Source of the DNA: Candidatus Altiarchaeota archaeon
GTDB lineage: Archaea; Altiarchaeota; Altiarchaeia; IMC4; SCGC-AAA252-I15
Reading direction: 5' to 3'
Assembly: GCA_043804895.1 (NCBI GenBank)
Contig: JAZDIN010000045.1
Coordinates: forward strand, 1 to 22,055
DNA: 22,055 nt
The notes under the pieces were generated by a model. That model saw nothing but the letters and a program-made list of their open reading frames with translations. It was not told the DNA's origin and made no database searches. Position 1 is the stretch's first letter, and the number at the start of each line of letters is the position of its first letter. Both the position numbers and the translations under genes were made by a program. Below are positions 1 to 22,055 of the stretch, one piece after another.

Positions 1-2
1 TA

Positions 3-2419: not shown

Positions 2420-2421
2420 TT

Positions 2422-4168: not shown

Positions 4169-4193
4169 GATAAAAAACAGGAAGGATACGCTA

Positions 4194-4886: not shown

Positions 4887-4916
4887 CTTAAATACCTATT
4901 AGATTAGTTTAATAAT

Positions 4917-5534: not shown

Positions 5535-5571
5535 CTGTTTTTAAGTGCGAATATCTAATGTATGTCAGATT

Positions 5572-6156
5572 ATGGGCAAGATGGAAATTTTGTTGGTTGG
5601 AGTTTTGGTCGTCTTAGCGTTGCTCATAGGTATGCTGTTCGGAGGCTCAAGCATATGGTTCCTCAAGCCCACGGGGGAGGGGGGAGTCACAGAGAAGGTA
5701 GTCAATAAATACGTGTGCTCTGACGGGAGCGTAAAGGACAACCAGAACAAATGCCCGAAGACTGTGACAGGCGCGGACGGCAAGATGGAAGTGGTATGCC
5801 CACCATGCAAAACAAGCGACACCACATCACCCTTACGCAAATGTGACTGCGTGCAGTGCGAATCCCAATGCGGCGTAGCATACACGCCGACAACCACTAC
5901 ACTTTACATTCCACCGTGCACTGTCTGCACGTCTAACGCTGAGTGCGGTCAGCCAAGCTACAGCGAAATACGGTGCAAGAACGACGATACATACAAGATG
6001 TACCTTGAGCCGTACTGTGCTGACGAGGACGGTAAGAAATGCTGCAAGACAACAGAGACCGTTAAGGATTTAACCCCATGCCCGCAAGACCAGCGGTGCG
6101 TGAAAGGACAAGGCTGCGAGATAAGAGAACAGGCCCCTGAAGAGGAGACCGCATAG
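5572..6156 (+). CDS. Membrane-anchored cysteine-rich hypothetical protein
   Basis: N-terminal TM segment (ILLVGVLVVLALLIGMLFG), YVCSDGS motif, many Cys and a PTTTT linker. Start placed at ATG 5572. Confidence 0.8.
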   Translation: MGKMEILLVGVLVVLALLIGMLFGGSSIWFLKPTGEGGVTEKVVNKYVCSDGSVKDNQNKCPKTVTGADGKMEVVCPPCKTSDTTSPLRKCDCVQCESQCGVAYTPTTTTLYIPPCTVCTSNAECGQPSYSEIRCKNDDTYKMYLEPYCADEDGKKCCKTTETVKDLTPCPQDQRCVKGQGCEIREQAPEEETA

Positions 6157-6157
6157 G

Positions 6158-6985: not shown

Positions 6986-7042
6986 CAGATTAAGAATAGG
7001 CTGGAGGGCATTTAAAAACCATGAACCTTGTAATAGATAACA

Positions 7043-7732
7043 GTGAAGAACAACAACGTCTGCTGCCTGTGCCATACGGAACATCCTCATAGTAAGCTGA
7101 CTGTCGGTGAAATCCTGAGGCCGAAGGTGTTTGACTTCATACACAAGCAGCATCCTGATTTCACGCACGAGAAGATGATTTGTACCGTCTGCCTGAACGA
7201 TAAGAGGTCTGAGTACATACTCAGCCTCCTCGGGGAAGACAACAGGAAGATATCCCACCTCGAGCATGAGGTGGCCAGGAGCATAAAGGAGAATGAGATG
7301 CTCTCCGCGAACATCATGGAGGAGTACGACGAGAAGCTGACATTGGGAGAGCGGCTGTCTGACAGGATAGCTACATTCGGAGGCAGCTGGACATTCATAA
7401 CAATATTCGCGCTCTTGATCTCCGCCTGGATTATCGTGAACGTCTACCTCATACAGAAGCCTGTCGACCCGTTCCCGTTCATACTCCTCAACCTCATGCT
7501 CTCATGCCTTGCGGCAGTCCAGGCCCCCGTCCTCATGATGAGCCAGAACAGGCAGGAGGCCCGAGACAGGATGAGGTCGAAACACGACTACCAGATTAAC
7601 CTCAAGGCCGAATTGGAGATACAGCACCTGAACGAGAAGCTCGACCTCCTCCTCAAGCACCAGTGGCAGAACCTCATCCAGATACAGCAGATACAGACGG
7701 ACATACTAGGGGAGATCAGGGAGAGGAGGTAA
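7043..7732 (+). CDS. DUF1003 membrane protein
   Basis: TLGERLSDRIATFGGSWTFI, DPFPFILLNLMLSCLAAVQAPVLMMSQNRQEARDR...DYQINLKAELEI. N-terminal CxxC...CxxC. Confidence 0.93.
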   Translation: MKNNNVCCLCHTEHPHSKLTVGEILRPKVFDFIHKQHPDFTHEKMICTVCLNDKRSEYILSLLGEDNRKISHLEHEVARSIKENEMLSANIMEEYDEKLTLGERLSDRIATFGGSWTFITIFALLISAWIIVNVYLIQKPVDPFPFILLNLMLSCLAAVQAPVLMMSQNRQEARDRMRSKHDYQINLKAELEIQHLNEKLDLLLKHQWQNLIQIQQIQTDILGEIRERR

Positions 7733-7740
7733 CACACCCA

Positions 7741-8775
7741 CTATTTTAATATAGTGAATGTACCGAATTTCTGGTTTTTGCGGTGGGAGTCAGAGCCCGC
7801 AGTCACTAGAAGCCCGTCTGTTCTAGATGCTTCAGCTATTTCGTCAGCTTCTCTCAGTGGGTGCGAGGGATGGTATGCTTCCACGCCGTCAACGCCGAGT
7901 TTTTTCAGTTTAAGAAGTAGGGTTGGCCATTCCTCCTTGCCGAGTTTTTCCCTCATGTGAGGGTGCGCTAGAATCACAAGGCCCCCTGCAGCATGTATGA
8001 CGTCGATGAACTCTACGATGTCGGGTTTGTTTACGCTGAAGTCGCCATACGTATTCCTCAACCATTTCACGATGTCATGCTGGATATCATGGCCGGTTTT
8101 GCGCCTCATCTTCCCATTGTGGTTTTTCATTTCGTACATGCTAATCCCGAGATAATCTTCTACACGGTTATCGTTTTCAGGGTGGTCCCAGATGTCCTTC
8201 GCAAGCACCTGGTAAATGTTCCTCTTAATCGAAAGGCTCTTAAAAAGGTCTGGCGAGAAGCAGAAATCTTCCTTCTCAAGCTGGCCCTTTATGTAGAGCG
8301 CCTTATCTATGTCCTTTTCTCTCCCGCTTGAATAGTCTTCGACAAACTTCCTTAACTGGGGATTCTCAGTATCCACTGCGACACCCAACATATGCATCTT
8401 GGTCATCTCAGTGATGCCCGTATGGTCGAAACGCACGGAAACCTCGATGCCAGCTATAATGTTAGCCTCATCCTTAGGCCCCAGCACCCTCTTCAGCTTT
8501 TCGAGCTCGTTGATAGCTAGGATAGCACCATATATGGTGTAGTGGTCTGTGACGATGACTTTGTATTTACCCTTGTAAACCTCAAGTGCCAGCTCCTCAG
8601 GGCTTCGTTCACCATCTGAAGCAGTCGTGTGAATCTGCCCGTCATACTTACCTCCTTTGAGGCGAATCCGTTGAGATTCAATGTGGGATATGGGGTCATC
8701 ACCGCTTTTTTCAATGACATCAATCACCCTTTCAGGAACGTAATCCAACCACTTACTTCGCCCCTTATAAGCCAT
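7741..8775 (-). CDS. PHP-domain metal-dependent phosphoesterase
   Basis: QIHTTASDG, TDH, GIEVS, HMLG, LAHP, GVEAYHP and GSDSH motifs. Start placed at MAYKG. Confidence 0.88.
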   Translation of the reverse strand: MAYKGRSKWLDYVPERVIDVIEKSGDDPISHIESQRIRLKGGKYDGQIHTTASDGERSPEELALEVYKGKYKVIVTDHYTIYGAILAINELEKLKRVLGPKDEANIIAGIEVSVRFDHTGITEMTKMHMLGVAVDTENPQLRKFVEDYSSGREKDIDKALYIKGQLEKEDFCFSPDLFKSLSIKRNIYQVLAKDIWDHPENDNRVEDYLGISMYEMKNHNGKMRRKTGHDIQHDIVKWLRNTYGDFSVNKPDIVEFIDVIHAAGGLVILAHPHMREKLGKEEWPTLLLKLKKLGVDGVEAYHPSHPLREADEIAEASRTDGLLVTAGSDSHRKNQKFGTFTILK

Positions 8776-8932
8776 ATATACATTAGTGTAGGACGAGTAA
8801 ATAACGTTATTCGCCGAATTCCTCAGCCCGAAACGTCTTCGCGGTCGGGTGTTGCGTCTATGCCAACGAACTCTAATTCTGGGAATCAACTGAGTCTATC
8901 ACTTTTAAAGGCTAGTATGTAATTTAGAACGG

Positions 8933-11827
8933 GTGGTTGGAGTGAAGAGGATAGTCGCCTTAATAGTTGTTTTTGTTTTGTTGTCTGGAGATGCTGCTGC
9001 GTTTTCGCTGAATGACTTGATTGATTACATACTGGGCCTCTTTGGTGGCGGCGGGAAGCAGCCTGACAATGTCGTGTGCAATCCCCCTTACATCAAAGTG
9101 GGTGGCAAATGCTGTTTAGATAGAAACGATAACAGGATATGCGACAAGGACGAGACCACGACTACACAGCCGAGGCAGACAACTCAGACGACGCAAACGA
9201 CTCAACCATCATCTGCTGTGACAACCACACTACAGTCAACTGTAACCACACTGAAGACGAACCTAAATTATGGTAGGGTCACGCTTACTGGCACGCTCGT
9301 GAACGACGTCGACCCAGTTTTGACCGCTGATAAAAGCATACTAGTGCAACCGACTGACGAGGCCAGCAAAGGCTCGTTCCTCGACGTAGTCGACATGGTC
9401 TCAGCAACGCAGCTTGGCGCGGTCATGCTCTCAGGCAGGCTCCTGACCGGAGTCGATGCAGTCATACTAGACAACGGGAAGACAGTCTTAATGCCCACAG
9501 CAGCCTCACCCCAAGCCTACCTGGACGTCATAGACCTGCCAACGAAGTCAAAGGTGAAAAGCCTTAAACTCGCCGCTGAACTGCAGGAGGACGTGGACGT
9601 GCAGGCGACGCCAAATCAGAAGAATGCGTTAATGGCAACAAGACTGGACGCCAGCAACAGCTTCTTAGAGGTGATTGACCTCACAACCAACGCGATAACG
9701 AAGAAGGTGGCGCTCCAAGGCGACCTCAAGGAGGGCGTCGACTGTCTCGTCACAAGAGACAGCGGCAAGGCTGTGTGCCCGACAAACAAGGTGGCTGTGG
9801 GAAGCAACCTACATTTCATAGACCTGGCGTCTGGGGTGCTCCTTAAGGTCTTGGGCGTCGACGGCGCCCTGGAGGGGGACGTGGACTTGAAGATGAGATC
9901 CAACGACGAGATAATACTCATGCCAACCAAGACCCCGGTGAGGGGGTTCCTCTCCATAATAGAGGCTAAGACGATGTCGATTGAGAAGAAGCTGGAGTTG
10001 AGCGGCACATTAAAGGAGAGCGTCGACACATACTTCCTGCCTGGCGAGAAGACCGCATACATTCCTGTCACAAACGGCAACCAAGGCTACGTCGACATCA
10101 TAGACGTAGTCGGCAAACAGGTGAAGTACAGCGTGAAACTGACAGGCGACCTCGTGAAGGGAGTCGACGGCAAACACCTACCCGACGGCTCAATGATTCT
10201 GATGCCAAACCAGAAGGGAAGCACCGCCTACCTGGACATCATAGACCCATCATCAGGAACGGTTGTGAAGTCAGTGCAACTCTCCGGAACGCTCCAGACT
10301 GCTGTTGACGTTCAGGTGACCGAGGACGGGAAGACAGCATACATGCCTGTGAGAAGACCAGGGAGGGGTAAAATCGACATCATAGACGTCGCCTCAGGCG
10401 CGCTAGTGAAGACAATAGACCTTAAGGCAGACCTCAAAGAGGATGTGGATGCGCTGTTGACAGTCAGTACAAAGAGGATTGCCATACCATCCAGCAAGAA
10501 CATCGCATACATCGACGTCATAACCAACACGCCAGCTAACTCACTCACAGCGATGACAACAGGGATGGGCGTCGGCTACGTCGACGTCATAGACACAGGC
10601 AGCAACAACGTGTTCGGGAGCATGAGCCTCCCAGGAGACATAGTAGTCGGAGTCGACGGCATATCAGGCGAACTCGCATCAACGACTCCAGACCCAGATG
10701 AAGACATGACCTTAAGCCTAGAACAACCCAGTGTAACCTCCACAACCACCACAATCCCGCAGCAAACCACCACAACACTATGGACGCCGCCACCTGACTC
10801 AACATCAACAACTATCCCTGACAACATACCCACGACCACGACGCTCAGGGTGACCACGACAACCCAGGGCGCAGTCATCACCCCAAGGTGCGGTGACGGA
10901 TACCTGTCCACACCTAACAGTCCCGGAGGCGGAAGCGAGGAATGCGACCTCAATGACAACCCCCAATACAGTTGGGCTGGAGGCAACGTGTACCCATGCC
11001 CAACCGGCCTTGAGTGCGTGAACTGCAAGTGCGTCGGATGCGGTGACGGCAGACTCCAGAAGGGCGAAGAATGCGACCCCAACAACAAGAAGAGCAAGGT
11101 GAACGGTCAACTCCTCTGGCAGGGCCAGGAGTACGCGTGCAGTGGCCAGTACGAGTACTGTGACTCGAGCACATGCACGTGTGAGTCATCGGTCCAGTGC
11201 ACCGGCGACCTGTATAACGCAGACAATTGCAACGGCGCATGCAACAGCCAGTGCAAGGAGTGCGCGCCATACCAGCAGACACCATGCTACTACTGCAAGA
11301 ACAGAGACTGCAGCCAGATAGACTCAGGCGGAGTCAGCCTCTACAACACTGCTTCCGAATGCAACCAACATTGCCCCCAAGGCACAGGCCAATGCATAAG
11401 CTGGAGCACATGCAGCAACTGCTACTATTGTAAGAACTACGTGTGCGGAAACGGCGCGGTGGAACCGGGAGAACAGTGTGAGAAGAACTCAGACTGCCCC
11501 AGCTACCACACATGCAGCCAATGCCAGTGCGTGACAGACTGTAACGGATACTGCGGAAGCGTAGGCCAAGGTTTCACCAACTACGGCGGCATCGGAAGCT
11601 CAGACCAGTGCTCCTCACAGACGAACCCGAACTCAGTACTCAAACAGTTAATAGACCAGATGAGCGAAACCTGCTACGCAGTCTGCGGGAAAGGCTACTT
11701 CATGGACGGCCTCAACGACAACTGCTGCTGCACCAAAACCAACAAAGTCCACTGCCTAGACTGCCCAGGCCAAAACCCAGACTGCAACACAGCACTAAAC
11801 CAATGCAAAGCAAGCATCCCGATGTGA
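8933..11827 (+). CDS. Large secreted/surface protein: signal peptide, Cys module, Thr-rich linkers, ~47-aa beta-propeller-like repeats, Cys-rich CGDG/EECD repeats
   Basis: Signal peptide ending DAAA-F; CNPPYIKVGGKCCLDRNDNRICD; nine L.G.L...VD...P......(L/I)D(V/I)ID repeats; PRCGDG...EECD, CGDGRLQKGEECD, CGNGAVEPGEQCE. Confidence 0.9.
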   Translation: MVGVKRIVALIVVFVLLSGDAAAFSLNDLIDYILGLFGGGGKQPDNVVCNPPYIKVGGKCCLDRNDNRICDKDETTTTQPRQTTQTTQTTQPSSAVTTTLQSTVTTLKTNLNYGRVTLTGTLVNDVDPVLTADKSILVQPTDEASKGSFLDVVDMVSATQLGAVMLSGRLLTGVDAVILDNGKTVLMPTAASPQAYLDVIDLPTKSKVKSLKLAAELQEDVDVQATPNQKNALMATRLDASNSFLEVIDLTTNAITKKVALQGDLKEGVDCLVTRDSGKAVCPTNKVAVGSNLHFIDLASGVLLKVLGVDGALEGDVDLKMRSNDEIILMPTKTPVRGFLSIIEAKTMSIEKKLELSGTLKESVDTYFLPGEKTAYIPVTNGNQGYVDIIDVVGKQVKYSVKLTGDLVKGVDGKHLPDGSMILMPNQKGSTAYLDIIDPSSGTVVKSVQLSGTLQTAVDVQVTEDGKTAYMPVRRPGRGKIDIIDVASGALVKTIDLKADLKEDVDALLTVSTKRIAIPSSKNIAYIDVITNTPANSLTAMTTGMGVGYVDVIDTGSNNVFGSMSLPGDIVVGVDGISGELASTTPDPDEDMTLSLEQPSVTSTTTTIPQQTTTTLWTPPPDSTSTTIPDNIPTTTTLRVTTTTQGAVITPRCGDGYLSTPNSPGGGSEECDLNDNPQYSWAGGNVYPCPTGLECVNCKCVGCGDGRLQKGEECDPNNKKSKVNGQLLWQGQEYACSGQYEYCDSSTCTCESSVQCTGDLYNADNCNGACNSQCKECAPYQQTPCYYCKNRDCSQIDSGGVSLYNTASECNQHCPQGTGQCISWSTCSNCYYCKNYVCGNGAVEPGEQCEKNSDCPSYHTCSQCQCVTDCNGYCGSVGQGFTNYGGIGSSDQCSSQTNPNSVLKQLIDQMSETCYAVCGKGYFMDGLNDNCCCTKTNKVHCLDCPGQNPDCNTALNQCKASIPM

Positions 11828-11844: not shown

Positions 11845-11866
11845 TAACCCCCTTTTAGGGGGGTTA
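11845..11866. terminator. Hairpin between convergent genes, possible bidirectional terminator
   Basis: TAACCCCC-TTTTAG-GGGGGTTA lies between the stops of 8933-11827 (+) and 11864-13522 (-). Confidence 0.5.
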
Positions 11867-13522
11867 TTTCATCCTTTTTTTGTATTTTTCGTAAGCCTCA
11901 TTCGTCCTAGTGTTGTGTTTCTGCTGCAGTTCTCGTATCGCCTCAGGAAGCCGTTCCTGTTTTTCCATATCCTGTTTCTCCTTGCCTGCCTCAGTAAGCA
12001 TTCTGTTGAAGTCTTCCAAGCTCAGTTCGGTGATTTCCTTTTCAATCACCTTGTCGGACACGTAGAGGAATTCATATTCATATTTATCGAACACTTCCCA
12101 CATCTTGTCCAAGCCTTGTTCTTTTAGTTTACGTGTCATGGCCTCTAATTGCTTGTTTGCCTCAGATGAACTGCCGAGATTATGGCTAGTGGGTATGGGC
12201 TTCAATGTCACATTATCAGAACCAAACCCCGCTTCCAGAGCGGACGCTGTTACTAAAGTATCAATCATCCGAAAATCCTCGGATACTCCGGTACCGCGCT
12301 CCCCCTTCGGAAGCATCAGTTCCTCAGCCACGTAGCCGCCATAGGAGCAGGCTATTTCCTCTATGACCTGATTCAGACTAAGGTGTTGTCTCTCATCCCC
12401 CTCTGGGGCAGTATACCCTAACATTGTGACCCCTGTGAAGGTGATAATCTTTGGGGATGGAACATGTTCCAGGTATTTTTGCGCGAACGCATGACCGAGT
12501 TCGTGGTATACCGTCGTTATTCTATCGTATGGACGCTGCATGAACTTCGTTCCCTCGGCCTCGAATGTGCGTTGGAACGCTTTTTCTAGATGTTCTTTCT
12601 TTATGGTTATTGCCTCGTCTTTCTTGGGTGTTGTTGCCTCAGTAGTAGACTGTGTGGCTGATTCTTGAGTGGTGGACTGTCCGGCCGCATATCTTGCTAT
12701 GTTTTCTGCAGTGGAAAGCAGCTGTTTAATCTCGGCATATGACATATTGCTCGTCCGGCGAGCCAACTCATCGATGGTTATCCCTGTTGAGAGTAACTTC
12801 AGCCGGGGATTGGCTTCTTTTTCAGTAGGCTTGGTCGTTGCTAATGTGTGTAATATTTCCTTCCTCTCATCCTCGTCCGGGATTTTCATAGCAACCCAGT
12901 AGTCAGCCAGTGATGGGTATATCTCCTCTGGGTTGATTTCCGTGGTATCGGCTATGAAAACAGGCAGAATACTCTTGGATGTGGACAGTCTGCTGGTTTC
13001 ACGCAGGAGTTCGTTGAGGCTAATCCCGTCACCATCCAATTCTTTTATCCCGCGGATGACAAGCATCTTAGTGCCTCCTGTCTCGCTGAAAGCCTGTAGA
13101 AGGTCGTTGAGGCCGTCCTTGCCCCACTGTTTGTGGATGTCCCTAAGCTCTACCAATTCGACTTTAAGTTGTTTTGCGCCTACTTCGCCTGCGAAACAGT
13201 CGGATGCATGGCCTTTCCCTGTCGAATCCCACCCAAAGATTAGTACAGCCCGTGGTAGTTCGACGCCTTGATTTCTCCGCTCTTCATCCGAAAGGTTGAG
13301 TATTTGTATTATCTCGCCGAAGGCTGCTTTAGCCTGGTGCTGCCCTATCAGGTCGGTGAATTTAACAGTCGGAGACTCGATGCTGTCAATATGCGCCCTT
13401 ACAGTCTCATCCCACACAGTAGGCCTTTTCCCATAATACTTTAATACTTCCCCGCGCGGGCCGTAAAGTAGAGGTTCCTTAGTGTCCTCTGTTATTGGCT
13501 TTCTAGAGACGATTTCAGGCAT
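11864..13522 (-). CDS. FtsH-like protein: degenerate AAA module + M41 zinc peptidase, no TM segments
   Basis: TVKFTDLIGQHQAK, GVELPRAVLIFGWDSTGKG, IPDEDERKEIL, LARRTSNMSYAEI, YHELGHA, YGGYVAEE, TGVSEDF. Confidence 0.85.
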   Translation of the reverse strand: MPEIVSRKPITEDTKEPLLYGPRGEVLKYYGKRPTVWDETVRAHIDSIESPTVKFTDLIGQHQAKAAFGEIIQILNLSDEERRNQGVELPRAVLIFGWDSTGKGHASDCFAGEVGAKQLKVELVELRDIHKQWGKDGLNDLLQAFSETGGTKMLVIRGIKELDGDGISLNELLRETSRLSTSKSILPVFIADTTEINPEEIYPSLADYWVAMKIPDEDERKEILHTLATTKPTEKEANPRLKLLSTGITIDELARRTSNMSYAEIKQLLSTAENIARYAAGQSTTQESATQSTTEATTPKKDEAITIKKEHLEKAFQRTFEAEGTKFMQRPYDRITTVYHELGHAFAQKYLEHVPSPKIITFTGVTMLGYTAPEGDERQHLSLNQVIEEIACSYGGYVAEELMLPKGERGTGVSEDFRMIDTLVTASALEAGFGSDNVTLKPIPTSHNLGSSSEANKQLEAMTRKLKEQGLDKMWEVFDKYEYEFLYVSDKVIEKEITELSLEDFNRMLTEAGKEKQDMEKQERLPEAIRELQQKHNTRTNEAYEKYKKRMK

Positions 13523-13552
13523 GATAAGATACGGGAATTACTTGGATAAATA

Positions 13553-14170
13553 CTAGTCTATCGTGTGGCATTCTTGTTTGAGTTGGTTGAGTTGTGTTAC
13601 GTCGAGCACGTTCGGGTTTAGGGGTATGATGAGCTTCGACTCTGAGGTGCTTATCCTGTCTCTCACCTGCTGGACGAGTCTGAGGACTATCTGGAAGTTG
13701 TTGTTGCTCACCAAATACTCAAGGCCTTCTAGGAGTATGATGCTCCTACTGTGCGCCTCTATGAAGTTGTTGATGAACATACTCACCTCCTGCGGCCCGA
13801 AAATAGAGGGGATGTCTTCCCCGGCCCGGAGCTTGCTCAACCAACAGACTTCAGCATTAGCTAGTTCAGGATTACATCTCAAAGCCTTAGGATTCGCTCG
13901 GCTGATGTAAAGGCCTCGGGGCACGTCCTTCAGCTCGCGGGTGAAAATCCCCATGGCCTTCTCGCACTTCTCCTCGAGAATCAGGTACGCGGACCCAACA
14001 TCCAACCTGACATCACCATCCGCTTTAGAGGATGCTGAACCCACCCGGAGGGCCTCCTCCCTCCGCTTCAGAATCTCATCCTCCTTCCGGAGGGCCGTCT
14101 CCTCAGAGTTCAGCTTCGCAATCTCCCTCCTAAGCTCCTCAGCAAGAACCTCCCTATCCCCATCAAACAA
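13553..14170 (-). CDS. DUF835 domain protein with N-terminal coiled coil
   Basis: GLYISRANP, CWLSK, IILLEGLEYLVSNNNFQIVLRLVQQVRD, LIIPLNP. Confidence 0.88.
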   Translation of the reverse strand: MFDGDREVLAEELRREIAKLNSEETALRKEDEILKRREEALRVGSASSKADGDVRLDVGSAYLILEEKCEKAMGIFTRELKDVPRGLYISRANPKALRCNPELANAEVCWLSKLRAGEDIPSIFGPQEVSMFINNFIEAHSRSIILLEGLEYLVSNNNFQIVLRLVQQVRDRISTSESKLIIPLNPNVLDVTQLNQLKQECHTID

Positions 14171-14214
14171 GACAAAACACCAGTAATACTATTAACAGAC
14201 GCTAAAAAAAGGGA

Positions 14215-14296
14215 TTCACCAGCATCGAGTGTTAAATAGTTTGTTAAGTTTAAGCAGGGTATAATCTAAGGAGGAACTAGGGGGTTTTAACCTTGT
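14215..14296 (+). repeat. Degenerate copy R0 of the cassette-boundary repeat
   Basis: TTCACCAGCATCGAGTGTTAAATAGTTTGTTAAGTTTAAG matches R2 at 32 of 40 positions by my manual alignment. Tail GGAACTAGGGG(G)TTTTAACCTTGT is shared with R1. Confidence 0.8.
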
Positions 14297-14332
14297 ATTT
14301 CCTGAATTTAATTGTATTGTCTGGATAATCAA

Positions 14333-14533
14333 ATACTGCGCCCTGAAGGGCGCAGTATGACTTACAATGTGGCCGAGACTGATGTCTCGGACACACACCG
14401 GAGGCTAAGAGCCTCCGCTGTGACACGCTCAAAATGCAGACAAGCAGAACAAACACAAGAGGTGCAAACGCGAGATGGGATCCTTACGCGATTCCTCTGC
14501 GACCTGAAGGTTGCAGTATCCTCGCATGTTTGT
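14333..14533. ncRNA. Candidate structured RNA or DNA hairpin cluster, family unknown
   Basis: Perfect stems at 14333-14358, 14373-14390 and 14399-14417. A multibranch domain is closed by ACAAACA..GAGG/CCTC..TGTTTGT (14449-14533) and contains a second TGAA-loop hairpin (14497-14516). Confidence 0.5.
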
Positions 14534-14551
14534 AATGAAACGCATTGAGGA

Positions 14552-14971
14552 ATGATGAAGAACAAGTCTTATTCAGGGTCATGCAGCGTCAAAGATGCCG
14601 ACATAGGCTATGTAGACCTGAAAAATTCAGTAATCCACATAGTAGAATCCTCTGACGGGCCGTATTATATGCAAAAGGATGCCAATGGAAAGGATATACT
14701 GACAGACATCCATGTCCTCGGAGCATGCCAACTCCATGTCGTGGATGATTCCGACTCCTTCAAAGAGAGGTTCTCTCCGGAGTTGACGTCAACGCTGAAG
14801 CGCCTAAGGCGCGCAGGAAAAAACAACATCCTGCTGCATTACAACCCCACAAGCCCCAACTCGGACTTCATCCACAATGTCGCCGAGGAAATGGGATTCG
14901 ACAAAAAGGAGGAGGGGTTAATGCAACTGGACCTGAAAAAGCACAACAAACACCTAAAACTGACGAAATAA
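14552..14971 (+). CDS. Hypothetical protein; C-terminus weakly GNAT-like
   Basis: 139-aa ORF preceded by GAGG. LRRAGKNNILLHYNP...AEEMGF resembles the GNAT C-terminal motif. Confidence 0.65.
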   Translation: MMKNKSYSGSCSVKDADIGYVDLKNSVIHIVESSDGPYYMQKDANGKDILTDIHVLGACQLHVVDDSDSFKERFSPELTSTLKRLRRAGKNNILLHYNPTSPNSDFIHNVAEEMGFDKKEEGLMQLDLKKHNKHLKLTK

Positions 14972-15206
14972 TTTTAGCCTTCGACGCCAGCACCTTTGTT
15001 GACGTCTATTTCTGCAACAGAGTGAGGGTATGAAAAACAACACCAGTGTCTGTAGTTAATGCAAGCATAAAATACCCCCTAAGGTGAACTACTACCTACA
15101 CTGCAGACAACCCAGAAATAAGGGGTTTTAAATCACACTCCAATCTAAATCGTCAAGCCCGGTAACAGGTAACAGTTTGCGTTGTGTTTTATTCAGGGAG
15201 GGGGAA

Positions 15207-15683
15207 ATGGATTATATGGCCGTTAAGACGACTGTTCTGCTTGTGGACGACAACGAGGACCTTCTCGTGTCGATTAAGGACGGCCTGGAATCCTACGACA
15301 GTGCATATGTGGTTGACTGCGTCAAGGACGCTTCCGAATGCCTAAAGTACGTCGAGCAAAAGAACCCAGACCTGGTTCTACTCAACATTATGCTCCCGGA
15401 CATGGACGGATTCACCCTCAGGGCGAAGCTGAAGATGACGGATGCTAAGGACGTTCCCGTCATCTACCTGACTGCGAAGTACGACATCGACATGACGAGG
15501 AAGATAGGCATGCTGACCGCGGACGACTTCATAGTGAAGCCTATAAACATGCATGAACTCATCCTTCGGATTCAGAAAGTCCTGATGTGGCGCTGCTACC
15601 GTAATGGAAAAACACCAAGGCCGCATATGGGCGGAAAGCGAAGGAATCGACAAAGGAGCCACAACCAACACACCACTGCCTAA
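15207..15683 (+). CDS. Receiver (REC) domain protein lacking the phosphoacceptor Asp, basic C-terminal tail
   Basis: VLLVDDNED, PDLVLLNIMLPDMDG, PVIYLTA, DDFIVKP. Purine-rich GGGAGGGG precedes ATG 15207. Confidence 0.9.
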   Translation: MDYMAVKTTVLLVDDNEDLLVSIKDGLESYDSAYVVDCVKDASECLKYVEQKNPDLVLLNIMLPDMDGFTLRAKLKMTDAKDVPVIYLTAKYDIDMTRKIGMLTADDFIVKPINMHELILRIQKVLMWRCYRNGKTPRPHMGGKRRNRQRSHNQHTTA

Positions 15684-15730
15684 AGGCTGACAAATATGTG
15701 CTTTATGTTCTTATACTGCGTAATAGGTCT

Positions 15731-15880
15731 ATGAAGAATAATAAATACAGCCTGAAATGCAATTATTTTATGGGGGGTCAATGCACCAATACTCTTACCG
15801 AGTCGACGTTTGTTGTAGATGATTCCACAAGATCTGAATACTTCTGCAGGACCTGCACTTACCGGCCACAAAACATGTGA
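15731..15880 (+). CDS. Small four-cysteine hypothetical protein
   Basis: MKNNKYSLKCNYFMGGQCTN...YFCRTCTYRPQNM, 49 aa, co-oriented with its neighbours. Confidence 0.45.
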   Translation: MKNNKYSLKCNYFMGGQCTNTLTESTFVVDDSTRSEYFCRTCTYRPQNM

Positions 15881-15943
15881 TCCAGGGGGGCCGGTATCTT
15901 TCCCAGTTATTGGCTTATCTTCAGGTAGTCGCTATATACTCAC

Positions 15944-16297
15944 ATGAAAGTCATTAACCGGGCCGGCCGCGGCAGATCCAGGGACGGCAGATCAGGCGAG
16001 TCTGAACGAGGCGGATTCGGGGGATTCGACAGGAGAGGACCGGAGAATAGGTTTTCAGGCGGGTTCCGTAGGGGGGAGCCTGGCGGAAGGTCTAGGCCTC
16101 AGATGCATGAAGCAGTCTGTTCCAAGTGCAAGCAACGGTGTGAAGTCCCTTTCAAACCTTCACCCACTAAACCCGTTTACTGCAGCGCATGTTTCAGGAA
16201 GGACGAGCCGGAAAAAAGGCCGTCAAATCTGTCTGATGAGCTTGGCAGAATCAACGACAAACTCGATAGGATAATGCGGGCGCTGGATCTGGGTTAA
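15944..16297 (+). CDS. CxxC-x17-CxxC domain protein with RG/RGG-rich N-terminus and short coiled C-terminus
   Basis: QMHEAVCSKCKQRCEVPFKPSPTKPVYCSACF; C-terminal ELGRINDKLDRIMRAL. Confidence 0.9.
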   Translation: MKVINRAGRGRSRDGRSGESERGGFGGFDRRGPENRFSGGFRRGEPGGRSRPQMHEAVCSKCKQRCEVPFKPSPTKPVYCSACFRKDEPEKRPSNLSDELGRINDKLDRIMRALDLG

Positions 16298-16592
16298 ACA
16301 ACCCACCCCCAAAGTAACAACAATTATGCGATTTATAAACGCAGACGTCCTACTAAAGGACTATATCGAGCATTGTTTAGGTCAGGTGGCACTTAAATCT
16401 TGTTCTTTAAAAAAAAAATAATGGGGTAATTAAGCAAATTCGGGTATTAAACGCTCAAACGCACTGTAAACGTCGGAGATTGCCATAACGGTCCGATTAT
16501 TCATGTTGAATGCGAAACTGACGTGATAAACACTCACGGCTACTTTAAGCCGATATTAAATGAGAAATTAAAAAATTAAGGAGGTGAATTAA

Positions 16593-16763
16593 ATGCCAGG
16601 AAGAGATTTCGGAGGAGGAGGTTTTGACAGGGGCCCAAGGGAGATGACCGATGCCGTATGCAGCGAATGCGGCGCATCATGCCAGGTTCCGTTCAAGCCA
16701 ACCGAAGGAAAACCAGTATACTGCAGGGAATGCTACGCGAAAAGAAGACCAAAACGCTTCTAA
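16593..16763 (+). CDS. Second CxxC-x17-CxxC domain protein (56 aa, not in the ORF track)
   Basis: Manual translation: MPGRDFGGGGFDRGPREMTDAVCSECGASCQVPFKPTEGKPVYCRECYAKRRPKRF*. Strong SD AAGGAGGTGA at 16578-16587. Confidence 0.93.
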   Translation: MPGRDFGGGGFDRGPREMTDAVCSECGASCQVPFKPTEGKPVYCRECYAKRRPKRF

Positions 16764-16882
16764 AGCTTGACAGTAGAGTGGGAATACCGTACAATAACTA
16801 ATTCTTTATTTTATAAACCCCCTCAGCCAACGGCACACACCCGACACATAATTTTCCGGAGATACCCCACACACACGATAAA

Positions 16883-16963
16883 TTCGCCCCGATCGGGACT
16901 AGAACAGTTTGTTCAGTTTAGGTGGGGGAAACTCTGAATAGGAACTAGGGGTTTTAACCTTGT
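16883..16963 (+). repeat. Cassette-boundary repeat R1
   Basis: TTCGCCCCGATCGGGACTAGAACAGTTTGTTCAGTTTAGGTGGGGGAAAC followed by tail GGAACTAGGGGTTTTAACCTTGT. Confidence 0.95.
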
Positions 16964-17051
16964 GTGTGTGCGTTTTTTGGCGGGGGGGGACTTTTACTAG
17001 TTCCTCTGTTAACTCACCAGCCATACCCTGTTTTTACCATTTGTTGTCAAT

Positions 17052-17891
17052 TTACTTAGCTTTGGTAAATATTGCAGCGGTGAAGTCAATCTGGTCCAAG
17101 ATTGGTTCATTACCAACCATAAACTCGCCAGTTTCTCCACTCACACAATCTGTCTTTTGTACCGCTCTCCCTAGGAAAGTATATGAAGGACAGTAAGTTT
17201 GGCTAGCTGTAAGAGAACCATCCCCTACTTCAACGCAAAGACCGACATAGTTTTGCCAAGATGGTTGCATCCCTCCTACCTCATCTATACATCCTTGTGC
17301 GCTTCTCACATACAACCATTCACTCCCTCCAGTAGATTGACTTTCACTTTGGCAATGTTCACCACTCATTTCCCATGCATTATATAGCACCTTGAAGTAG
17401 TTGGCACAAGCAGTACAAACTCCTGCTACTGGGTCACAAACGGCAACTTGTGGTTTGTTTCCTCCTTTGTTGCCGGCATTACCTGCCCCACAACCGGTAG
17501 AGTCAACACATTCTACAGCACCAACACACGCCTTTGCCGACGGGCTCCAGCCACAGGCGTTTACAAGATAGTCCTGTATGTTCGGGTCGTATCTCCAATT
17601 ACAATCACCGTTCTGATAGTTGAGGTTTAACCCACTAGCCCCACAGGTCTGACCTAGACCTATCGGGCATTGAATCACTTCCCGACTACCTGCAATTTTA
17701 CTAACATCTGCTGAATTAGGACTATCTGAGCCCTTATAGAAGAAGTGGCACATATGTTTTGCAGGGCCCACGAGTATACCCTTTCCGCCTACTGCGGCAG
17801 TCGACAACGTGTCCGGCCACTTGGCCCCGAACCAAACAACCACGCCAATAGCAACTAACACTATTACCGCCCCAGTCAAGAGATTAGCCAT
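17052..17891 (-). CDS. Membrane-anchored cysteine-rich hypothetical protein
   Basis: MANLLTGAVIVLVAIGVVVWFG TM anchor, then many Cys and Gly residues. SD GGAGGT upstream of ATG 17891. Confidence 0.82.
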   Translation of the reverse strand: MANLLTGAVIVLVAIGVVVWFGAKWPDTLSTAAVGGKGILVGPAKHMCHFFYKGSDSPNSADVSKIAGSREVIQCPIGLGQTCGASGLNLNYQNGDCNWRYDPNIQDYLVNACGWSPSAKACVGAVECVDSTGCGAGNAGNKGGNKPQVAVCDPVAGVCTACANYFKVLYNAWEMSGEHCQSESQSTGGSEWLYVRSAQGCIDEVGGMQPSWQNYVGLCVEVGDGSLTASQTYCPSYTFLGRAVQKTDCVSGETGEFMVGNEPILDQIDFTAAIFTKAK

Positions 17892-18015
17892 CTTTTGAAC
17901 CTCCAATGTATAGTATATATATCATCGGATTAGTTAAAAGACCTGCGATTGTCTCATCTACCACCATAAATCTGGGGTAGAGTATAATCTTTCCTTTTTT
18001 CGGTACCCTGATAAA

Positions 18016-18065
18016 TTCGCCCCGATCGGGTTTTAAACAGTTTGTTCAGTTTAAGTGTGGAAAAC
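18016..18065 (+). repeat. Cassette-boundary repeat R2
   Basis: TTCGCCCCGATCGGGTTTTAAACAGTTTGTTCAGTTTAAGTGTGGAAAAC. The upstream TTCCTTTTTTCGG.AC.CTGATAA is shared with R4. Confidence 0.93.
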
Positions 18066-18097
18066 TTTCTATATGACTACACTTCCAAGGTATGTAG

Positions 18098-19048
18098 TCA
18101 TATGTCTTTAAGGTTTTTTCCTAGCTTATCATAGGATCTTAACATCAGGTCAATGCTCGGCCTTATGTTGCTCTCTTTTTGATATGCATGGAGGGAGGAA
18201 TAGTACTCTCTGTCGGACTTAACTTCAATATTCACTGGAGGTAGTCCGTGTTTCAACAGTATGTTGTTCATTAGTAGTCTTCCGACCCTGCCGTTTCCGT
18301 CCTCAAACGGGTGGATGCTCTCGAATTGGTTGTGGACGACTGCTGCAAGGACAATGGGGTGATACCTGTTTTTGCTCTTTTTGTACCACTCAACAAGCTC
18401 TTTCAGAAGACTCAACACCTTATTCTGCGGTGCGCCCCTGTGGACCACCTCTCCAAGCCTGTTTTTCACAACTACTTCCACTCCTGGGGGACGCATCCTG
18501 CCTGCGAACCTCTTGGAGTTCTTGAAGACAATCCTGTGCAAATCCGTCATCAATTCGATTGACAGGTGTTCCTTCGTTTCCCTAACCAACTTGACCGCGT
18601 CAGATACTCCATACGTCTCAGCAATCTCATCCTTGGCTTTGTCAGGCCACTTATCATTCTCTAGTATACCTTTAACTTCGGCTAAATTCACAGTCGAACC
18701 TTCTATTGCGTTCGTATCATATGCGAAAAGCTCCGTGAACCTAACCCACTGCTCTTCAGACAGATGGCTTATTTTGATGTCGTGCTTTCCTACCAAGGAC
18801 TTGATAGATGCCATCTCCTGAGGGGACAGAACAGTCTTCAGGGGGTCGCGGATGTTCTTGTACGACTGCGCCTGCCACATCAGCTCCTTCTCAGCAGCAG
18901 GCCGCAACGATGCAACCTCCTTCTCGGTGAGGTTGACTCCGAGGTACTTCCTCAGCCTCTTAACTTTGCCTTCGTGACGGAAAGAATGAGCCGCATAATA
19001 GAACTTCTTCCCGCCGCGCTTCTGAACCTCAATGTGCATCAATAACAC
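18098..19048 (-). CDS. Fic family protein
   Basis: Canonical Fic motif HPFEDGNGRVGR. DTNAIEG resembles the (S/T)xxxE(G/N) inhibitory motif. N-terminal KKFYYAAHSFR...RKYLG domain. Start may be ATG 19039. Confidence 0.95.
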   Translation of the reverse strand: MLLMHIEVQKRGGKKFYYAAHSFRHEGKVKRLRKYLGVNLTEKEVASLRPAAEKELMWQAQSYKNIRDPLKTVLSPQEMASIKSLVGKHDIKISHLSEEQWVRFTELFAYDTNAIEGSTVNLAEVKGILENDKWPDKAKDEIAETYGVSDAVKLVRETKEHLSIELMTDLHRIVFKNSKRFAGRMRPPGVEVVVKNRLGEVVHRGAPQNKVLSLLKELVEWYKKSKNRYHPIVLAAVVHNQFESIHPFEDGNGRVGRLLMNNILLKHGLPPVNIEVKSDREYYSSLHAYQKESNIRPSIDLMLRSYDKLGKNLKDI

Positions 19049-19092
19049 TATATGACTACAAGTTTAAATATGATTACAGGTATATGACTACA
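19048..19092 (-). promoter_or_regulatory. Fic promoter region: TATA-like box bracketed by ATATGA(C/T)TACA direct repeats
   Basis: Copies at 19050-19060, 19068-19078 and 19082-19092, with TTTAAATA between the first two. Confidence 0.6.
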
Positions 19093-19181
19093 GATAGAAC
19101 AGAGTGTTCAATCCCCTACGGGTGTTCGGACAACATAAAGAATAACGCCCATGGATACATTATAACTGCGAATTGGCTAGC

Positions 19182-19265
19182 TTCGCCCGCATCGGGACTA
19201 GAACAAAATGTTCGGTTTAAAGGGGCGTACTTTTAGGAGGGGGGGAATAAGGGTTTTAACCCCTG
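19182..19265 (+). repeat. Cassette-boundary repeat R3
   Basis: TTCGCCCGCATCGGGACTAGAACAAAATGTTCGGTTTAAAGGGGCGTAC followed by tail GGGTTTTAACCC. Confidence 0.95.
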
Positions 19266-19284
19266 TTCATATACTGTAGATGAG

Positions 19285-20400
19285 ATGGTGGTTTGGTTGC
19301 GTATACTAGGTGGTTTATTTTTACTGTTTTTGGTGTGCGGGTGTATAACTTCACAAATAGAGGAGACAACGACAATAAGAACACCTGAACCCGCAGTTTC
19401 CTCCACTACCCTCACCCCCACAACTTCAACTGTTTGCTACATTATCCGCAAGGGAGAGTCGATTAAAGAAGTACCGCCAAATGCCTGTTATATTATCGCA
19501 GATGAAGAGGAGCAGAAGAGTTTATCCTACTGTGATCATTTTGAAGGGGGGGAAAGGGATGAGTGCTATACGGAAATAGCAAGGCTGAATCAGGATATAA
19601 GATTATGTAACAAAATAGAGGTGAAAAAATCAAAATACGTTTGCAAGTATGGTCTGACACTAATCCTTTTAAGGGACAGGAATATAACTGTTGAAAAGGC
19701 ACTAGAGTTTTGTGAAGAAATGGGTGAAGCAGATATAAGAGATTTTCCTGAAAGCCTGTGTATTAAAAGTGTTGCTGTTGTTTCTGATCAGCCCCTCCTT
19801 AACCAAGATGCCGGCAAACAAATAACTCAAGAGGCAGACCTTAAAGAAGTAAGGAGCTGTTGGACTGAATCGTTTGAGTTTGAAGACAAAAAAATTGACC
19901 TTGTTGAAATTTCTTATGGCCCCCCACAGGACTGTTTTTCTGGATGTTTTCACAGTTCATTTGGGGGGATAATCGAAAATGGCGAATCTTTTCAGATTTG
20001 CAATTTCAATTACAATGCTGAGGGGAATAATTTACAGCTTTACCCTAAACCGCAAATTTTAGCCGGCCTTGTTGACTCTATGCAGATTTATTCAAACGTT
20101 TCTTTTGGAGGTGGATATAACTATTACAGAACTTTTTCTGACTGTTTTATAAGATATATGCACGAAATCAATTTGACTGAAGACTTTTGCTCAAACCTTT
20201 CAGATGAAGGGGAAAAACAAACATGCTTTGATTTGCTGATAGTTGACCAGAAAAAGTATGAGGATTGTGACAAGATTTATTTACCAAGATTAAGAGACCA
20301 TTGTTTTCTTCTTTCTGCTTTCAAATCAAAGGAAATCAATAAATGTGGGGGAATTTCTGATCTTGGAACCAGAGAATATTGCATTAACACGTTAGACTAA
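19285..20400 (+). CDS. Putative lipoprotein with Thr-rich linker and Cys-paired helical repeats
   Basis: LFLLFLVCGC signal; repeated C..(I/L/F).....(R/K)D.C(Y/F/I) units. Visibly more AT-rich than the left half of the window. Confidence 0.85.
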   Translation: MVVWLRILGGLFLLFLVCGCITSQIEETTTIRTPEPAVSSTTLTPTTSTVCYIIRKGESIKEVPPNACYIIADEEEQKSLSYCDHFEGGERDECYTEIARLNQDIRLCNKIEVKKSKYVCKYGLTLILLRDRNITVEKALEFCEEMGEADIRDFPESLCIKSVAVVSDQPLLNQDAGKQITQEADLKEVRSCWTESFEFEDKKIDLVEISYGPPQDCFSGCFHSSFGGIIENGESFQICNFNYNAEGNNLQLYPKPQILAGLVDSMQIYSNVSFGGGYNYYRTFSDCFIRYMHEINLTEDFCSNLSDEGEKQTCFDLLIVDQKKYEDCDKIYLPRLRDHCFLLSAFKSKEINKCGGISDLGTREYCINTLD

Positions 20401-20574
20401 TATAAACGTTCAAATAACAGTGAAAAGCTCTCAAACGGATTCTATAATAAAAAATTAGTCTAGTAGTCCTAAACTGGTATCCCGTCGTCTTATTGGGGTA
20501 TATCGGTCTCTCCATCGGATATGGAGTGCTGCATCCTTCTATAAAATCATTCCTTTTTTCGGAACTCTGATAAC

Positions 20575-20623
20575 TTCGCCCGCATCGGGACTAGAACAAT
20601 CTGTTCGGTTATGGCGGGGATAC
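20575..20623 (+). repeat. Cassette-boundary repeat R4
   Basis: TTCGCCCGCATCGGGACTAGAACAATCTGTTCGGTTATGGCGGGGATAC. Confidence 0.95.
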
Positions 20624-20689
20624 TCATTAGGAGTATTTATATACTTAGGTATCCCCATGTATACTTAGGAGTACTATCTGAGGGATTAC

Positions 20690-20932
20690 ATGGACACAAC
20701 AACGATAAAGCTCTATGGTGAGACGAAATTACAGTTGAACCAGTTTAGGGAATACAAAAACGAAAGCTATGACGAAATAGTAAAGAAACTAGTTTATATA
20801 GCCAGGACCGTGGGAAAAGACCCTAAACTAAGCAGTCAAACAGTCCGTGACATAGAGGCAGCCAGAGAAAGACTACGGAATGGAGAATTCTACAGTGAAC
20901 AGCAAGTTGCCAAGATGCTGGGCTTAAAGTGA
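20690..20932 (+). CDS. Putative antitoxin (ribbon-helix-helix-like N-terminus)
   Basis: MDTTTIKL...L..F....NESYDEIVKKL; C-terminal GEFYSEQQVAKMLGL. Overlaps the RelE-type gene by 4 nt (GTGA). Confidence 0.85.
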   Translation: MDTTTIKLYGETKLQLNQFREYKNESYDEIVKKLVYIARTVGKDPKLSSQTVRDIEAARERLRNGEFYSEQQVAKMLGLK

Positions 20933-21189
20933 AACAGGAGTACACGGTAAAGTTTGACACAGATGCGACAGAGGAGTTAGTGAAGCTGCCGCACGACATA
21001 TCTCGCAGAGTATACAAGAAGATAATTGAATCCAAACAAGACCCATACCATTATTGGGTGAGGCTAGAAGGCAGAACAGACTACAGGATACGAGTCGGAG
21101 ACTATCGGGCAATAGCAGACATCATCGAAAACGAAAAACTAATCTATGTGACCAAAATCGGACACAGAAAAACAATCTACCAAGAATAA
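20929..21189 (+). CDS. RelE/ParE family type II toxin
   Basis: YTVKFDTDATEELVKLP, RLEGRTDYRIRVGDYRAI, VTKIGHRKTIY. Confidence 0.93.
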   Translation: MKQEYTVKFDTDATEELVKLPHDISRRVYKKIIESKQDPYHYWVRLEGRTDYRIRVGDYRAIADIIENEKLIYVTKIGHRKTIYQE

Positions 21190-21307
21190 CCATTACTCCT
21201 CAATATCTTACCCCTAGAATCAGAACACAGTGTTCGAATCCCAGAGGGGGTTTTAACAGCACAAGCTATAGCCGCTATAAACCCCATATACTCTCTAATC
21301 AGCTGAT

Positions 21308-21356
21308 ATCGCCCGCATCGGGACTAGAACAAAATGTTCGGTTTAGAGGGGGATAC
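21308..21356 (+). repeat. Cassette-boundary repeat R5
   Basis: ATCGCCCGCATCGGGACTAGAACAAAATGTTCGGTTTAGAGGGGGATAC. Confidence 0.95.
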
Positions 21357-21468
21357 TTCCATAGCCTATCTGGGATACGTATGGATGGCTAGGGGTCCAC
21401 TGCCAAACACTGCATGTAATCCCCGAATTCTTATATCCTTATACACCCAATATATTGATTGGATATTG

Positions 21469-21762
21469 ATGAAAAGCATCACTCAGATTAGGAGGATACT
21501 CCAAAAGCGGAAGGAAGGTTTACATAAGGAATATGGAGTTAGTGAGATTGGGGTCTTCGGGTCTTTTGTGAGGGGGCAGCAGAATAGGCGCAGCGATGTC
21601 GACATACTCGTGGATTTCACCAAAACTCCTGACCTGTTCGAACTTATCAGGTTGGAGAACAGCCTAAGACGCTCGCTCGGCAGAAAAGTAGACCTTGTGA
21701 GAAAAGGCGGAATTAGACCTGAACTTCGGAGGAACATACTGTCCGAGGCAGTGATTATATGA
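21469..21762 (+). CDS. Minimal nucleotidyltransferase (MNT/MntA-type antitoxin)
   Basis: YGVSEIGVFGSFVRGQQNRRSDVDILVDF...LGRKVDLV. Real start likely ATG 21469 (MKSITQ), since the longer ORF runs through repeat R5. Confidence 0.93.
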   Translation: MKSITQIRRILQKRKEGLHKEYGVSEIGVFGSFVRGQQNRRSDVDILVDFTKTPDLFELIRLENSLRRSLGRKVDLVRKGGIRPELRRNILSEAVII

Positions 21763-22055
21763 GGAGAAAGCACAGCCTATATGTGAAAGACATCCTGGAC
21801 GCCATCACTCAGACAGAAAAGTTCGTTGACAGGATGAGTTACCCAGAATTCCAAGCAGATGATAGGACATCCAGCGCCGTTGTGAGAAAACTGGAGATAA
21901 TCGGCGAGGCAGCCAAGAACATACCCCTAGAAATCAGGCAGAAAAACAAGACCATACCCTGGACGGACATGGCCAAGACAAGGGATAAAATAATCCACGG
22001 ATACTTTGGGGTTGACTACGACGTAATCTGGAAAACGGTCAAAGAAAGGCTGCCA
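21759..22055 (+). CDS. HEPN/DUF86 (HepT-like) RNase toxin, 3'-truncated by the window
   Basis: Manual translation: MRRKHSLYVKDILDAI...LEIIGEAAKNIP...IPWTDMAKTRDKIIHGYFGVDYDVIW, with an Rx4HxY motif. ATGA overlap with the MNT stop. Confidence 0.93.
   Translation, partial: MRRKHSLYVKDILDAITQTEKFVDRMSYPEFQADDRTSSAVVRKLEIIGEAAKNIPLEIRQKNKTIPWTDMAKTRDKIIHGYFGVDYDVIWKTVKERLP

Follow-up and report, generated by a model that had tools for sequence, protein, structure and literature searches.

The integrated elements described in archaea encode their own tyrosine recombinase or a casposase (PMC6563490). As set out in that account, they share with the locus analyzed here the use of tRNA targets, tRNA-derived direct repeats and the growth of arrays by reuse of one site, whereas the cassettes of the present locus lack a recombinase or casposase gene. 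The tycheposons of Prochlorococcus carry a tyrosine recombinase and a replication module (bioRxiv 10.1101/2020.12.28.424599). The islands in which they are described resemble the present array in lying beside tRNA genes, in holding partial tRNA copies between integrations and in containing degenerate remnants; here, in contrast, no tyrosine recombinase and no replication or packaging module is present, and the partial tRNA, 13-22 nt long, is fused to a conserved arm.

Among bacterial elements, CIMEs of the ICESt1/ICESt3 type are described as decayed ICEs or IMEs, thought to be moved by the integrase of a helper (PMC5704250). The likeness to CIMEs and tandem accretion, as portrayed there, lies in att-flanked units that lack genes for integration or transfer and accumulate in tandem at a target gene's 3' end: in the present array, att sites lie on both sides of the units, and integration and transfer genes are absent. 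Unlike CIMEs, the units here measure 0.7-1.4 kb, hold one or two genes, bear a dedicated conserved arm and reside in an archaeal host; furthermore, no helper with the same arm was found, and the integrase elements of relatives have another arm. Integron arrays without an integrase (CALINs) are also known, including in Archaea, in a preprint whose main text makes no mention of Altiarchaeota or tRNA (bioRxiv 10.1101/2022.02.06.479319). Small cassettes that each end in a recombination site, frequent toxin-antitoxin cargo and an array free of any recombinase are common ground with CALINs; the long imperfect attC hairpin and IntI are missing, and the sites derive from tRNA ends.

A gene-swapping island at tRNA-end sites is thus a known kind of structure. 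The present case differs from the known ones in its very small, integron-like units, in a single arm common to cassettes with different tRNA-type cores, in the mixing of core types within one array and in having no recognized recombinase. Judged by title and abstract, none of the papers retrieved on Altiarchaeota together with integrases, tRNA and mobile elements describes this system. We interpret the repeats as the att sites of small, mobile, integrase-less gene cassettes, composed of a tRNA-end core and an element-borne arm, a reading to which we assign a probability of about 75%.

Organization of the repeat array

The window, that is, the whole stretch of DNA analyzed, is a complete contig of 22,055 bp (C45) from the genome under study (G000; 71 contigs, 1.58 Mb, 88.7% complete). 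A repeat search of the window recovered six copies of a ~67-nt repeat (R0 to R5, Table 1), all in one orientation and the outermost degenerate, in an array that occupies window positions 14209-22055. From R0 to R5, the start-to-start spacings are 2668, 1133, 1166, 1393 and 733 bp. A 30-nt degenerate pattern covering the core and the hairpin-like part of the arm matches five times in the window, at the five good copies, and zero times in each of 100 dinucleotide-preserving shuffles; the repeat is therefore not a chance occurrence. The segment 19182-19213, singled out in the first-pass annotation, is the core and hairpin-like part of R3, where the pattern matches at 19184-19213. The GC content of the array is 44.7%, against 52.4% in window bases 1-11827, which counts in favor of reading the repeats as att sites.

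Table 1. Features of the repeat array in the 22,055-bp window.
Feature	Position	Strand	Description
R0	14209..14275	+	Degenerate outermost site with decayed arm; 64% in repeat search; nhmmer E 2.2e-07
Interval R0-R1	14276..16876	+	2668 bp start to start; 139-aa ORF (14552-14971) and response-regulator receiver protein (15177-15683)
Two small treble-clef zinc-finger proteins (PF23477)	15944-16297, 16593-16763		In interval R0-R1
R1	16877..16943	+	Asp-type core (16885-16897) and arm; model E 4.8e-15
Cassette 1 cargo	17052..17906	-	284 aa, N-terminal hydrophobic segment, 16 Cys, no Pfam family
R2	18010..18076	+	Asp-type core (18018-18030) and arm; left end of Fic cassette
Cassette 2 cargo	18098..19048	-	Fic/DOC-family protein, 316 aa (PF02661, 2.3e-19)
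Inverted copy of core-arm junction	19097..19125	+	T-arm-like on + strand; right end of Fic cassette; kept in C4 and G014 copies
R3	19176..19242	+	Arg-type core (19184-19196) and arm; site of the first-pass annotation
Cassette 3 cargo	19285..20400	+	371 aa, lipobox-like N-terminus, 21 Cys, no Pfam family
R4	20569..20635	+	Arg-type core (20577-20589) and arm
Cassette 4 cargo	20690..21189	+	DUF7557 protein (20690-20932, presumed antitoxin) and ParE-family toxin (20929-21189)
Second inverted copy of core-arm junction	21223..21250	+	Right end of cassette 4
R5	21302..21368	+	Arg-type core (21310-21322) and arm
Cassette 5 cargo	21469..22055	+	MNT nucleotidyltransferase (likely start 21469, end 21762) and HepT ribonuclease (from 21759, cut by contig end)

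On the minus strand, R3, R4 and R5 read GTTC-TAGT-CCCGA-TGCGGGC-G-A and R1 reads GTTC-TAGT-CCCGA-TCGGGGC-G-A, so that the TGCGGGC and TCGGGGC variants given in the first-pass annotation are confirmed on re-reading; R2 has the core of R1 but AAAA in place of TAGT. Two inverted copies of the core-arm junction lie ~50 nt ahead of R3 and R5. Together with the site that follows, each forms a 137-nt composite, 71% alike between the R3 and R5 places and also kept in the Fic cassettes of contig C4 and of a relative, G014.

The repeats are neither a tRNA gene nor a pseudogene or half gene: ARAGORN finds no tRNA gene in the window, Rfam gives no match in 13500-22055 at E≤1, and only ~20 nt are tRNA-like. 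A split-tRNA half was likewise rejected, the fragment being too short and a full tRNA-Arg gene existing elsewhere in the genome.

The cores match 3' ends of tRNA genes

Read along its sequence, each repeat joins a tRNA-like core to a conserved arm that appears to belong to the element. The core is a copy of the last 13-15 bases of a tRNA gene, comprising the 3' strand of the T-stem, the 3' strand of the acceptor stem and the discriminator. Two types occur in the array: tRNA-Arg(GCG) in R0 and R3-R5, and tRNA-Asp(GTC) in R1 and R2. For R0, agreement is 10/13 with the Arg-type core and 8/13 with the Asp-type core.

The 13-mer CCCGATGCGGGCG, the core of R3-R5, occurs at four places in the 1.58-Mb genome, namely the three repeats and C52:34430-34442, which is the 3' end of a tRNA-Arg(GCG) gene (C52:34220-34442). 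This gene forms a full cloverleaf with a seven-pair Watson-Crick acceptor stem and has a 151-nt intron at 37/38. Its T-arm reads TCGGG/TTCGAAT/CCCGA, followed by TGCGGGC and G, in the same register as the repeat. The 7+5+7+1 geometry of T-loop, T-stem, acceptor strand and discriminator that had been proposed for the repeat is thereby borne out, as is the expectation that some tRNA of this genome would have a matching 3' end. The identity with R3-R5 is 15/15 over the stretch that starts with the 3' strand of the T-stem and ends with the first base after the discriminator, and 20/22 when counted from G53, both differences falling in the T-loop (TAGT versus GAAT).

The core of R1 and R2 matches 13/13 bases at the end of tRNA-Asp(GTC), CCCGATCGGGGCG, in the same-genus genome G002, in agreement with an earlier guess at tRNA-Asp, and it differs at one position from the tRNA-Asp(GTC) of G001 and G014. 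A tRNA ending in TCGGGGCG, the R1/R2 core, is absent from the G000 assembly and present in relatives.

Neither default ARAGORN nor Rfam RF00005 detected the tRNA-Arg gene on C52, which came to light through an exact-word search and through an ARAGORN run that permitted introns. The 151-nt intron thus makes the target tRNA invisible to default tRNA finders, and because such an intron-bearing target escapes them, att sites at tRNA ends are easily misread as orphan repeats. With introns allowed, 17 of the 26 ARAGORN tRNA calls in G000 have an intron, some of them longer than 100 nt, and one call is a 'tRNA-Stop(tta)' (C56:7621-7786). Immediately 5' of tRNA-Arg, C52:34108-34190 begins like the 5' end of the tRNA and is kept in G003; it may represent either a duplication of the tRNA's 5' part or a structured leader.

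In G003 and G001, the tRNA-Arg end is duplicated 73-90 nt downstream within a small palindromic module, which makes this tRNA end a hot spot of recombination at the level of the genus as well. Another kind of tRNA-end repeat combines a reverse-complemented tRNA 3' end with a ~22-nt hairpin and a forward T-loop, T-stem and acceptor start, the three forming a small palindromic module. It occurs at G000:C4:91557-91625 and 93309-93377 (L054 558-626 and 2310-2378) and also 3' of tRNA-Arg in G003 (L061) and G001 (L062).

A conserved arm accompanies every core type

The arm spans at least ~35 nt and consists of the element's version of the T-loop (mostly TAGT), GAACA-N3-TGTTC and GGTTTA-GGTGGGGG, the full motif order being GAACA-N3-TGTTC-GGTTTA-GGTGG. 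Across 16 aligned sites, drawn from G000, six relatives and one metagenome contig, TGTTC is invariant, GGTTTA-GGTGG to its right is well conserved and the core to its left varies. ACTA (TAGT on the tRNA strand) is found in nine of the 16 sites, whatever core follows. The departure of TTCTAGT from the tRNA consensus, flagged at the outset as a caveat, is real and is explained by this part of the T-loop belonging to the element, the tRNA itself having TTCGAAT. The replacement of the 5' T-stem strand by GAACA-N3-TG was also seen as described.

The 5' half of GAACA-N3-TGTTC varies without compensation, none of the five pairs being changed on both sides. Single-strand folds of five 67-nt units give z-scores from +0.05 to -2.56, with one of five below -2, and those of two 146-nt composites give -1.22 and -2.11. 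Given the lack of covariation and folds no better than those of shuffles, a hairpin or attC was rejected and GAACA-N3-TGTTC is read as a putative protein-binding sequence.

The R' consensus of integrons is GTTRRRY, and the arm words GTTCGGT and GTTCAGT agree with it at only 6/7 positions. For the integron integrase IntI, the incomplete genome G000 returns zero PF00589 matches. Having neither an attC-type fold nor IntI, the system is not an integron.

Cassettes, cargo and the recurrence of the Fic cassette

The repeats delimit cassettes of 0.7-1.4 kb with one or two genes each, and a repeat precedes genes on either strand (Table 1). The product of cassette 1 is Cys-rich and predicted to be membrane-anchored or secreted. 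The longer interval R0-R1 may represent more than one decayed cassette; the shorter of its treble-clef zinc-finger proteins has a 90% identical relative at C24:30263-30385.

The Fic cassette occurs again between two sites at C4:40427-41679 of the same genome (80% amino-acid identity), between two sites in G014:C7 (82%) and beside one site in G003:C2 (75%). In the four-way alignment, homology extends from the left core across the arm and the gene and on through an operator-like promoter region. On C4 and in G014:C7 it continues as far as the next core; in G003, where no second site was recognized, it stops ~75 nt earlier. The sequences flanking the four copies show no relationship. The arm-side core is Asp-like at all four places (exact in the window and on C4, one mismatch in G014, three in G003), while the core on the other side is Arg-type in the window and Asp-type on C4 and in G014. 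From this constancy on the arm side and variation on the other, each cassette seems to carry its own core and arm and to be capable of docking at sites of both types. Comparison of these copies makes the Fic cassette demonstrably mobile.

Within the Fic cassette (18070-18106 and 19050-19095), an inverted ATATGACTACA-like pair follows the gene and three direct copies around a TTTAAATA box precede it; the ATATGACTACA/TTTAAATA words recur in each of the four Fic cassettes and resemble operators. The MNT-HepT pair of cassette 5 has a counterpart with 75% amino-acid identity ~1 kb downstream of tRNA-Asp in G014:C11, facing the tRNA in the same way. No excised or empty-site form was seen, which counts against reading the repeats as att sites; no public sequencing runs are listed for window 14000-22055.

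The arm at other loci and in relatives

Elsewhere in G000, the arm is joined to the end of tRNA-Met at C4:5086-5122 (13 nt, exact), 1.8 kb downstream of the intact tRNA-Met, and to the end of tRNA-Ser at C4:91727-91767, 2.5 kb from the intact tRNA-Ser. The tRNA-Ser repeat extends over 31 nt at 94% and takes in 20 nt of the downstream flank. Further core types accompany the arm in G003, G004, G012 and G017, in the same 4+5+7+1 layout. G005 has an arm site 10 kb downstream of its tRNA-Asp that keeps a flank native to tRNA-Asp in G014; this retained flank identifies the site as the mark of an insertion between tRNA-Asp and its flank. The 10-kb insert encodes surface proteins and glycosyltransferases and has no integrase. 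Other sites count against the att-site reading: no tRNA adjoins the sister arrays at C4:12958-16277 (cargo RsgA and CDF plus methyltransferase) and C4:40427-43600, and a site on C29 is Asp-type, yet its nearest tRNA is a tRNA-Cys 2.5 kb away.

With 150 candidates per genome scored, the site model detects sites in eight of 21 family genomes at E≤0.001, with at least 11 copies in G000 and at least one to three in the others. The arm pattern with one mismatch allowed is found in 10 of 20 family relatives and in two of 28 other genomes of the order, where the reversed control gave two hits; several genomes with a single hit show no core there, and these hits appear to be chance matches. Scanning public genome contigs with the arm pattern gave one archaeal match and three bacterial matches apparently due to chance, and a metagenome scan gave two loci or contigs. 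On the genomes scanned, the arm is apparently confined to this archaeal family.

Surroundings of the array

The array runs off the contig end inside HepT, and no intact tRNA stands beside it within the window. The tRNA-Arg gene lies 128 bp from the end of contig C52, and reading of these 128 bp revealed no cassette-end motif. Contig ends, of C45 and C52 or of others, show no overlap, and synteny with four relatives gives no link between the window and the tRNA-Arg locus. Contig C29 was rejected as a continuation of the window, its first ORF not being the HepT C-terminus. In all four relatives, as on C52, tRNA-Arg(GCG) lies beside ThiC. No arm site follows tRNA-Arg within ~14 kb in three of them or within the <1 kb to the contig end in the fourth. 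This absence, the 128 bp free of a cassette-end motif and the lack of an intact tRNA beside the array count against the att-site reading. None of the window genes occurs in these ThiC and tRNA-Arg neighborhoods, except for a short N-terminal match of a 964-aa protein.

This 964-aa protein (8933-11827) belongs to no Pfam family and has internal repeats with a period of ~141 nt; many proteins of relatives share its N-terminal ~100 residues. Around its relatives no arm site occurs, and a single tRNA lies there, an unrelated tRNA-Leu in G003 at a distance of 3.3 kb from the match. Within the family, only G000 has the genes on the left side of the array (11864-14170). Among them is a 552-aa protein (11864-13522), AAA-lid/M41-peptidase-like and adjoining a DUF835 protein (11864-14170 for the two), for which a search of 20 family relatives at E≤1e-20 returned nothing. 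The 552-aa and DUF835 proteins may already be part of a foreign island.

No recombinase accompanies the arm

A Pfam scan of the 15 ORFs of 11864-22055 revealed no recombinase. At genome scale, PF00589 has zero matches in G000 (the whole 88.7%-complete genome), G001, G004 and G005 and a single match in G003, a protein of ~283 aa that is taken, from its size, to be XerA-like. Resolvase (PF00239), Y1 transposase (PF01797) and archaeal phage integrase (PF16795) have zero matches in all five arm-bearing genomes, which are 81-92% complete, and this lack of a recombinase counts against the att-site reading; the genomes being incomplete, a helper may simply be missing.

In relatives, eight of the 10 loci examined have a tyrosine integrase no more than 1.6 kb from the 3' end of a tRNA, tRNA-Asp among them, which indicates that tRNA-targeting recombination is active in the family. 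As other family members have such tRNA-linked integrases, a helper recombinase acting in trans on the present cassettes is plausible by analogy. In G014 and G016, the elements with an integrase at tRNA-Asp and tRNA-Glu share the type of core and differ in the arm; the far ends of the relatives' integrase-bearing elements carry TGTTGG repeats, which counts against the att-site reading, and no element with both the GAACA-N3-TGTTC arm and an integrase was seen.

This second family of att arms, with TGTTGG/TGTTCTTGG repeats joined to tRNA-Asp or tRNA-Glu acceptor ends, occurs at L065 (19380-19431), L067, L068 and L060 (7032-7090) in G014, G016 and G002. It bounds 7-10-kb elements with a tyrosine integrase, one of which also has a C5 methylase and Vsr, and, at tRNA-Asp in G002, a 1.6-kb unit that has no integrase.

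Proposed mechanism and alternative explanations

The tRNA-end cores, the shared arm and the recurrence of the Fic cassette together lead us to regard the units as mobile integrase-less cassettes. We infer that a cassette in circular form would recombine through its core, either with a tRNA gene whose 3' end matches or with an existing array site, using a recombinase supplied in trans. The crossover would fall within the last bases of the tRNA, which would for that reason stay intact. Repeated events would stack cassettes head to tail, each keeping its own core and arm at the end far from the tRNA, and cassettes would also move between arrays. Compared with tRNA-gene islands, the bounding repeat here is a tRNA 3' end (Arg 15/15; Asp 13/13 in G002) and an intact tRNA is present at sister loci (tRNA-Met and tRNA-Ser on C4, tRNA-Asp in G005), while it is absent at two C4 arrays and no integrase lies inside the island.

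The first-pass annotation took every copy for a scar, the displaced 3' end of one minus-strand tRNA located just beyond the right end of the window, shifted to the left as small integrase-less units integrated one after another. R3-R5 are indeed identical to the tRNA-Arg(GCG) end, this gene is only 128 bp from a contig end, and the copies are oriented as a minus-strand tRNA on the right requires. Nevertheless, with Asp cores (R1, R2) and Arg cores (R0, R3-R5) sharing one array, the copies are not all displaced ends of one tRNA. The Fic cassette, whose arm-side core is Asp-like at four of four places and exact at two of them whatever lies on the other side, fits cassette-borne sites better than scars of one tRNA. 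Adjacency to a tRNA is also unproven: the contig ends first, and neither a contig overlap nor a synteny link supports a tRNA just past its right end. In this literal form the explanation is quite improbable. What endures of it are the integrase-less units, in keeping with sites at tRNA ends, the absence of an integrase and a mobile Fic unit; the single source tRNA is abandoned in view of the two core types.

An integron-like system with its own dedicated, unrecognized recombinase, whose sites only mimic tRNA ends and whose arrays can form anywhere, would account for the arrays on C4 without a tRNA, for cassettes common to different arrays and for the format of the cassettes (0.7-1.4 kb, one or two genes, toxin-antitoxin cargo common). 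It would also agree with the absence of all four recombinase families from the arm-bearing genomes, bar the one XerA-sized PF00589 match in G003. However, the sites near intact tRNA-Met, tRNA-Ser and tRNA-Asp match those very tRNAs, an attC-type hairpin is lacking (z +0.05 to -2.56; 0/5 compensatory pairs), and a helper may simply be missing from incomplete genomes, which renders this explanation unlikely. Least probable by far is a repeat that does not move and has a regulatory or structural role, for example as a promoter block, a terminator block or a REP-like element, with an incidental likeness to tRNA ends. The arm does contain a TTTA(A/G) stretch and a G-run, followed in some copies by a GGGGTTTTAAC motif, and the short palindrome GAACA-N3-TGTTC could bind a regulator; against this, individual copies agree in register with the ends of different actual tRNAs, in three cases beside the tRNA concerned, the homology of the Fic cassette ends at sites, sites stand ahead of genes on either strand, and Rfam returns no match.

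Mobile integrase-less cassettes with tRNA-end att sites therefore remain the preferred reading. A more speculative extension, which we consider possible though doubtful, is that Altiarchaeota have a gene-cassette system of their own, integron-like and based on tRNA mimicry, in which cassettes of one or two genes would carry sites of ~45 nt with a core that imitates a tRNA 3' end, allowing docking behind varied tRNAs or in arrays without damage to a tRNA, with a recombinase from outside the four families searched, none of which was found in four arm-bearing genomes.

Implications for gene exchange in Altiarchaeota

Altiarchaeota are uncultured, little-studied archaea with small genomes, and to our knowledge the ways in which they exchange genes are largely unknown. 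The recombinase that is missing from the cassettes is the main question raised by this system. The array offers a concrete and testable route of exchange, in which packets of one or two genes, encoding toxin-antitoxin pairs, Fic proteins and surface proteins, would be swapped between chromosomal arrays and between species by way of sites that look like tRNA ends.
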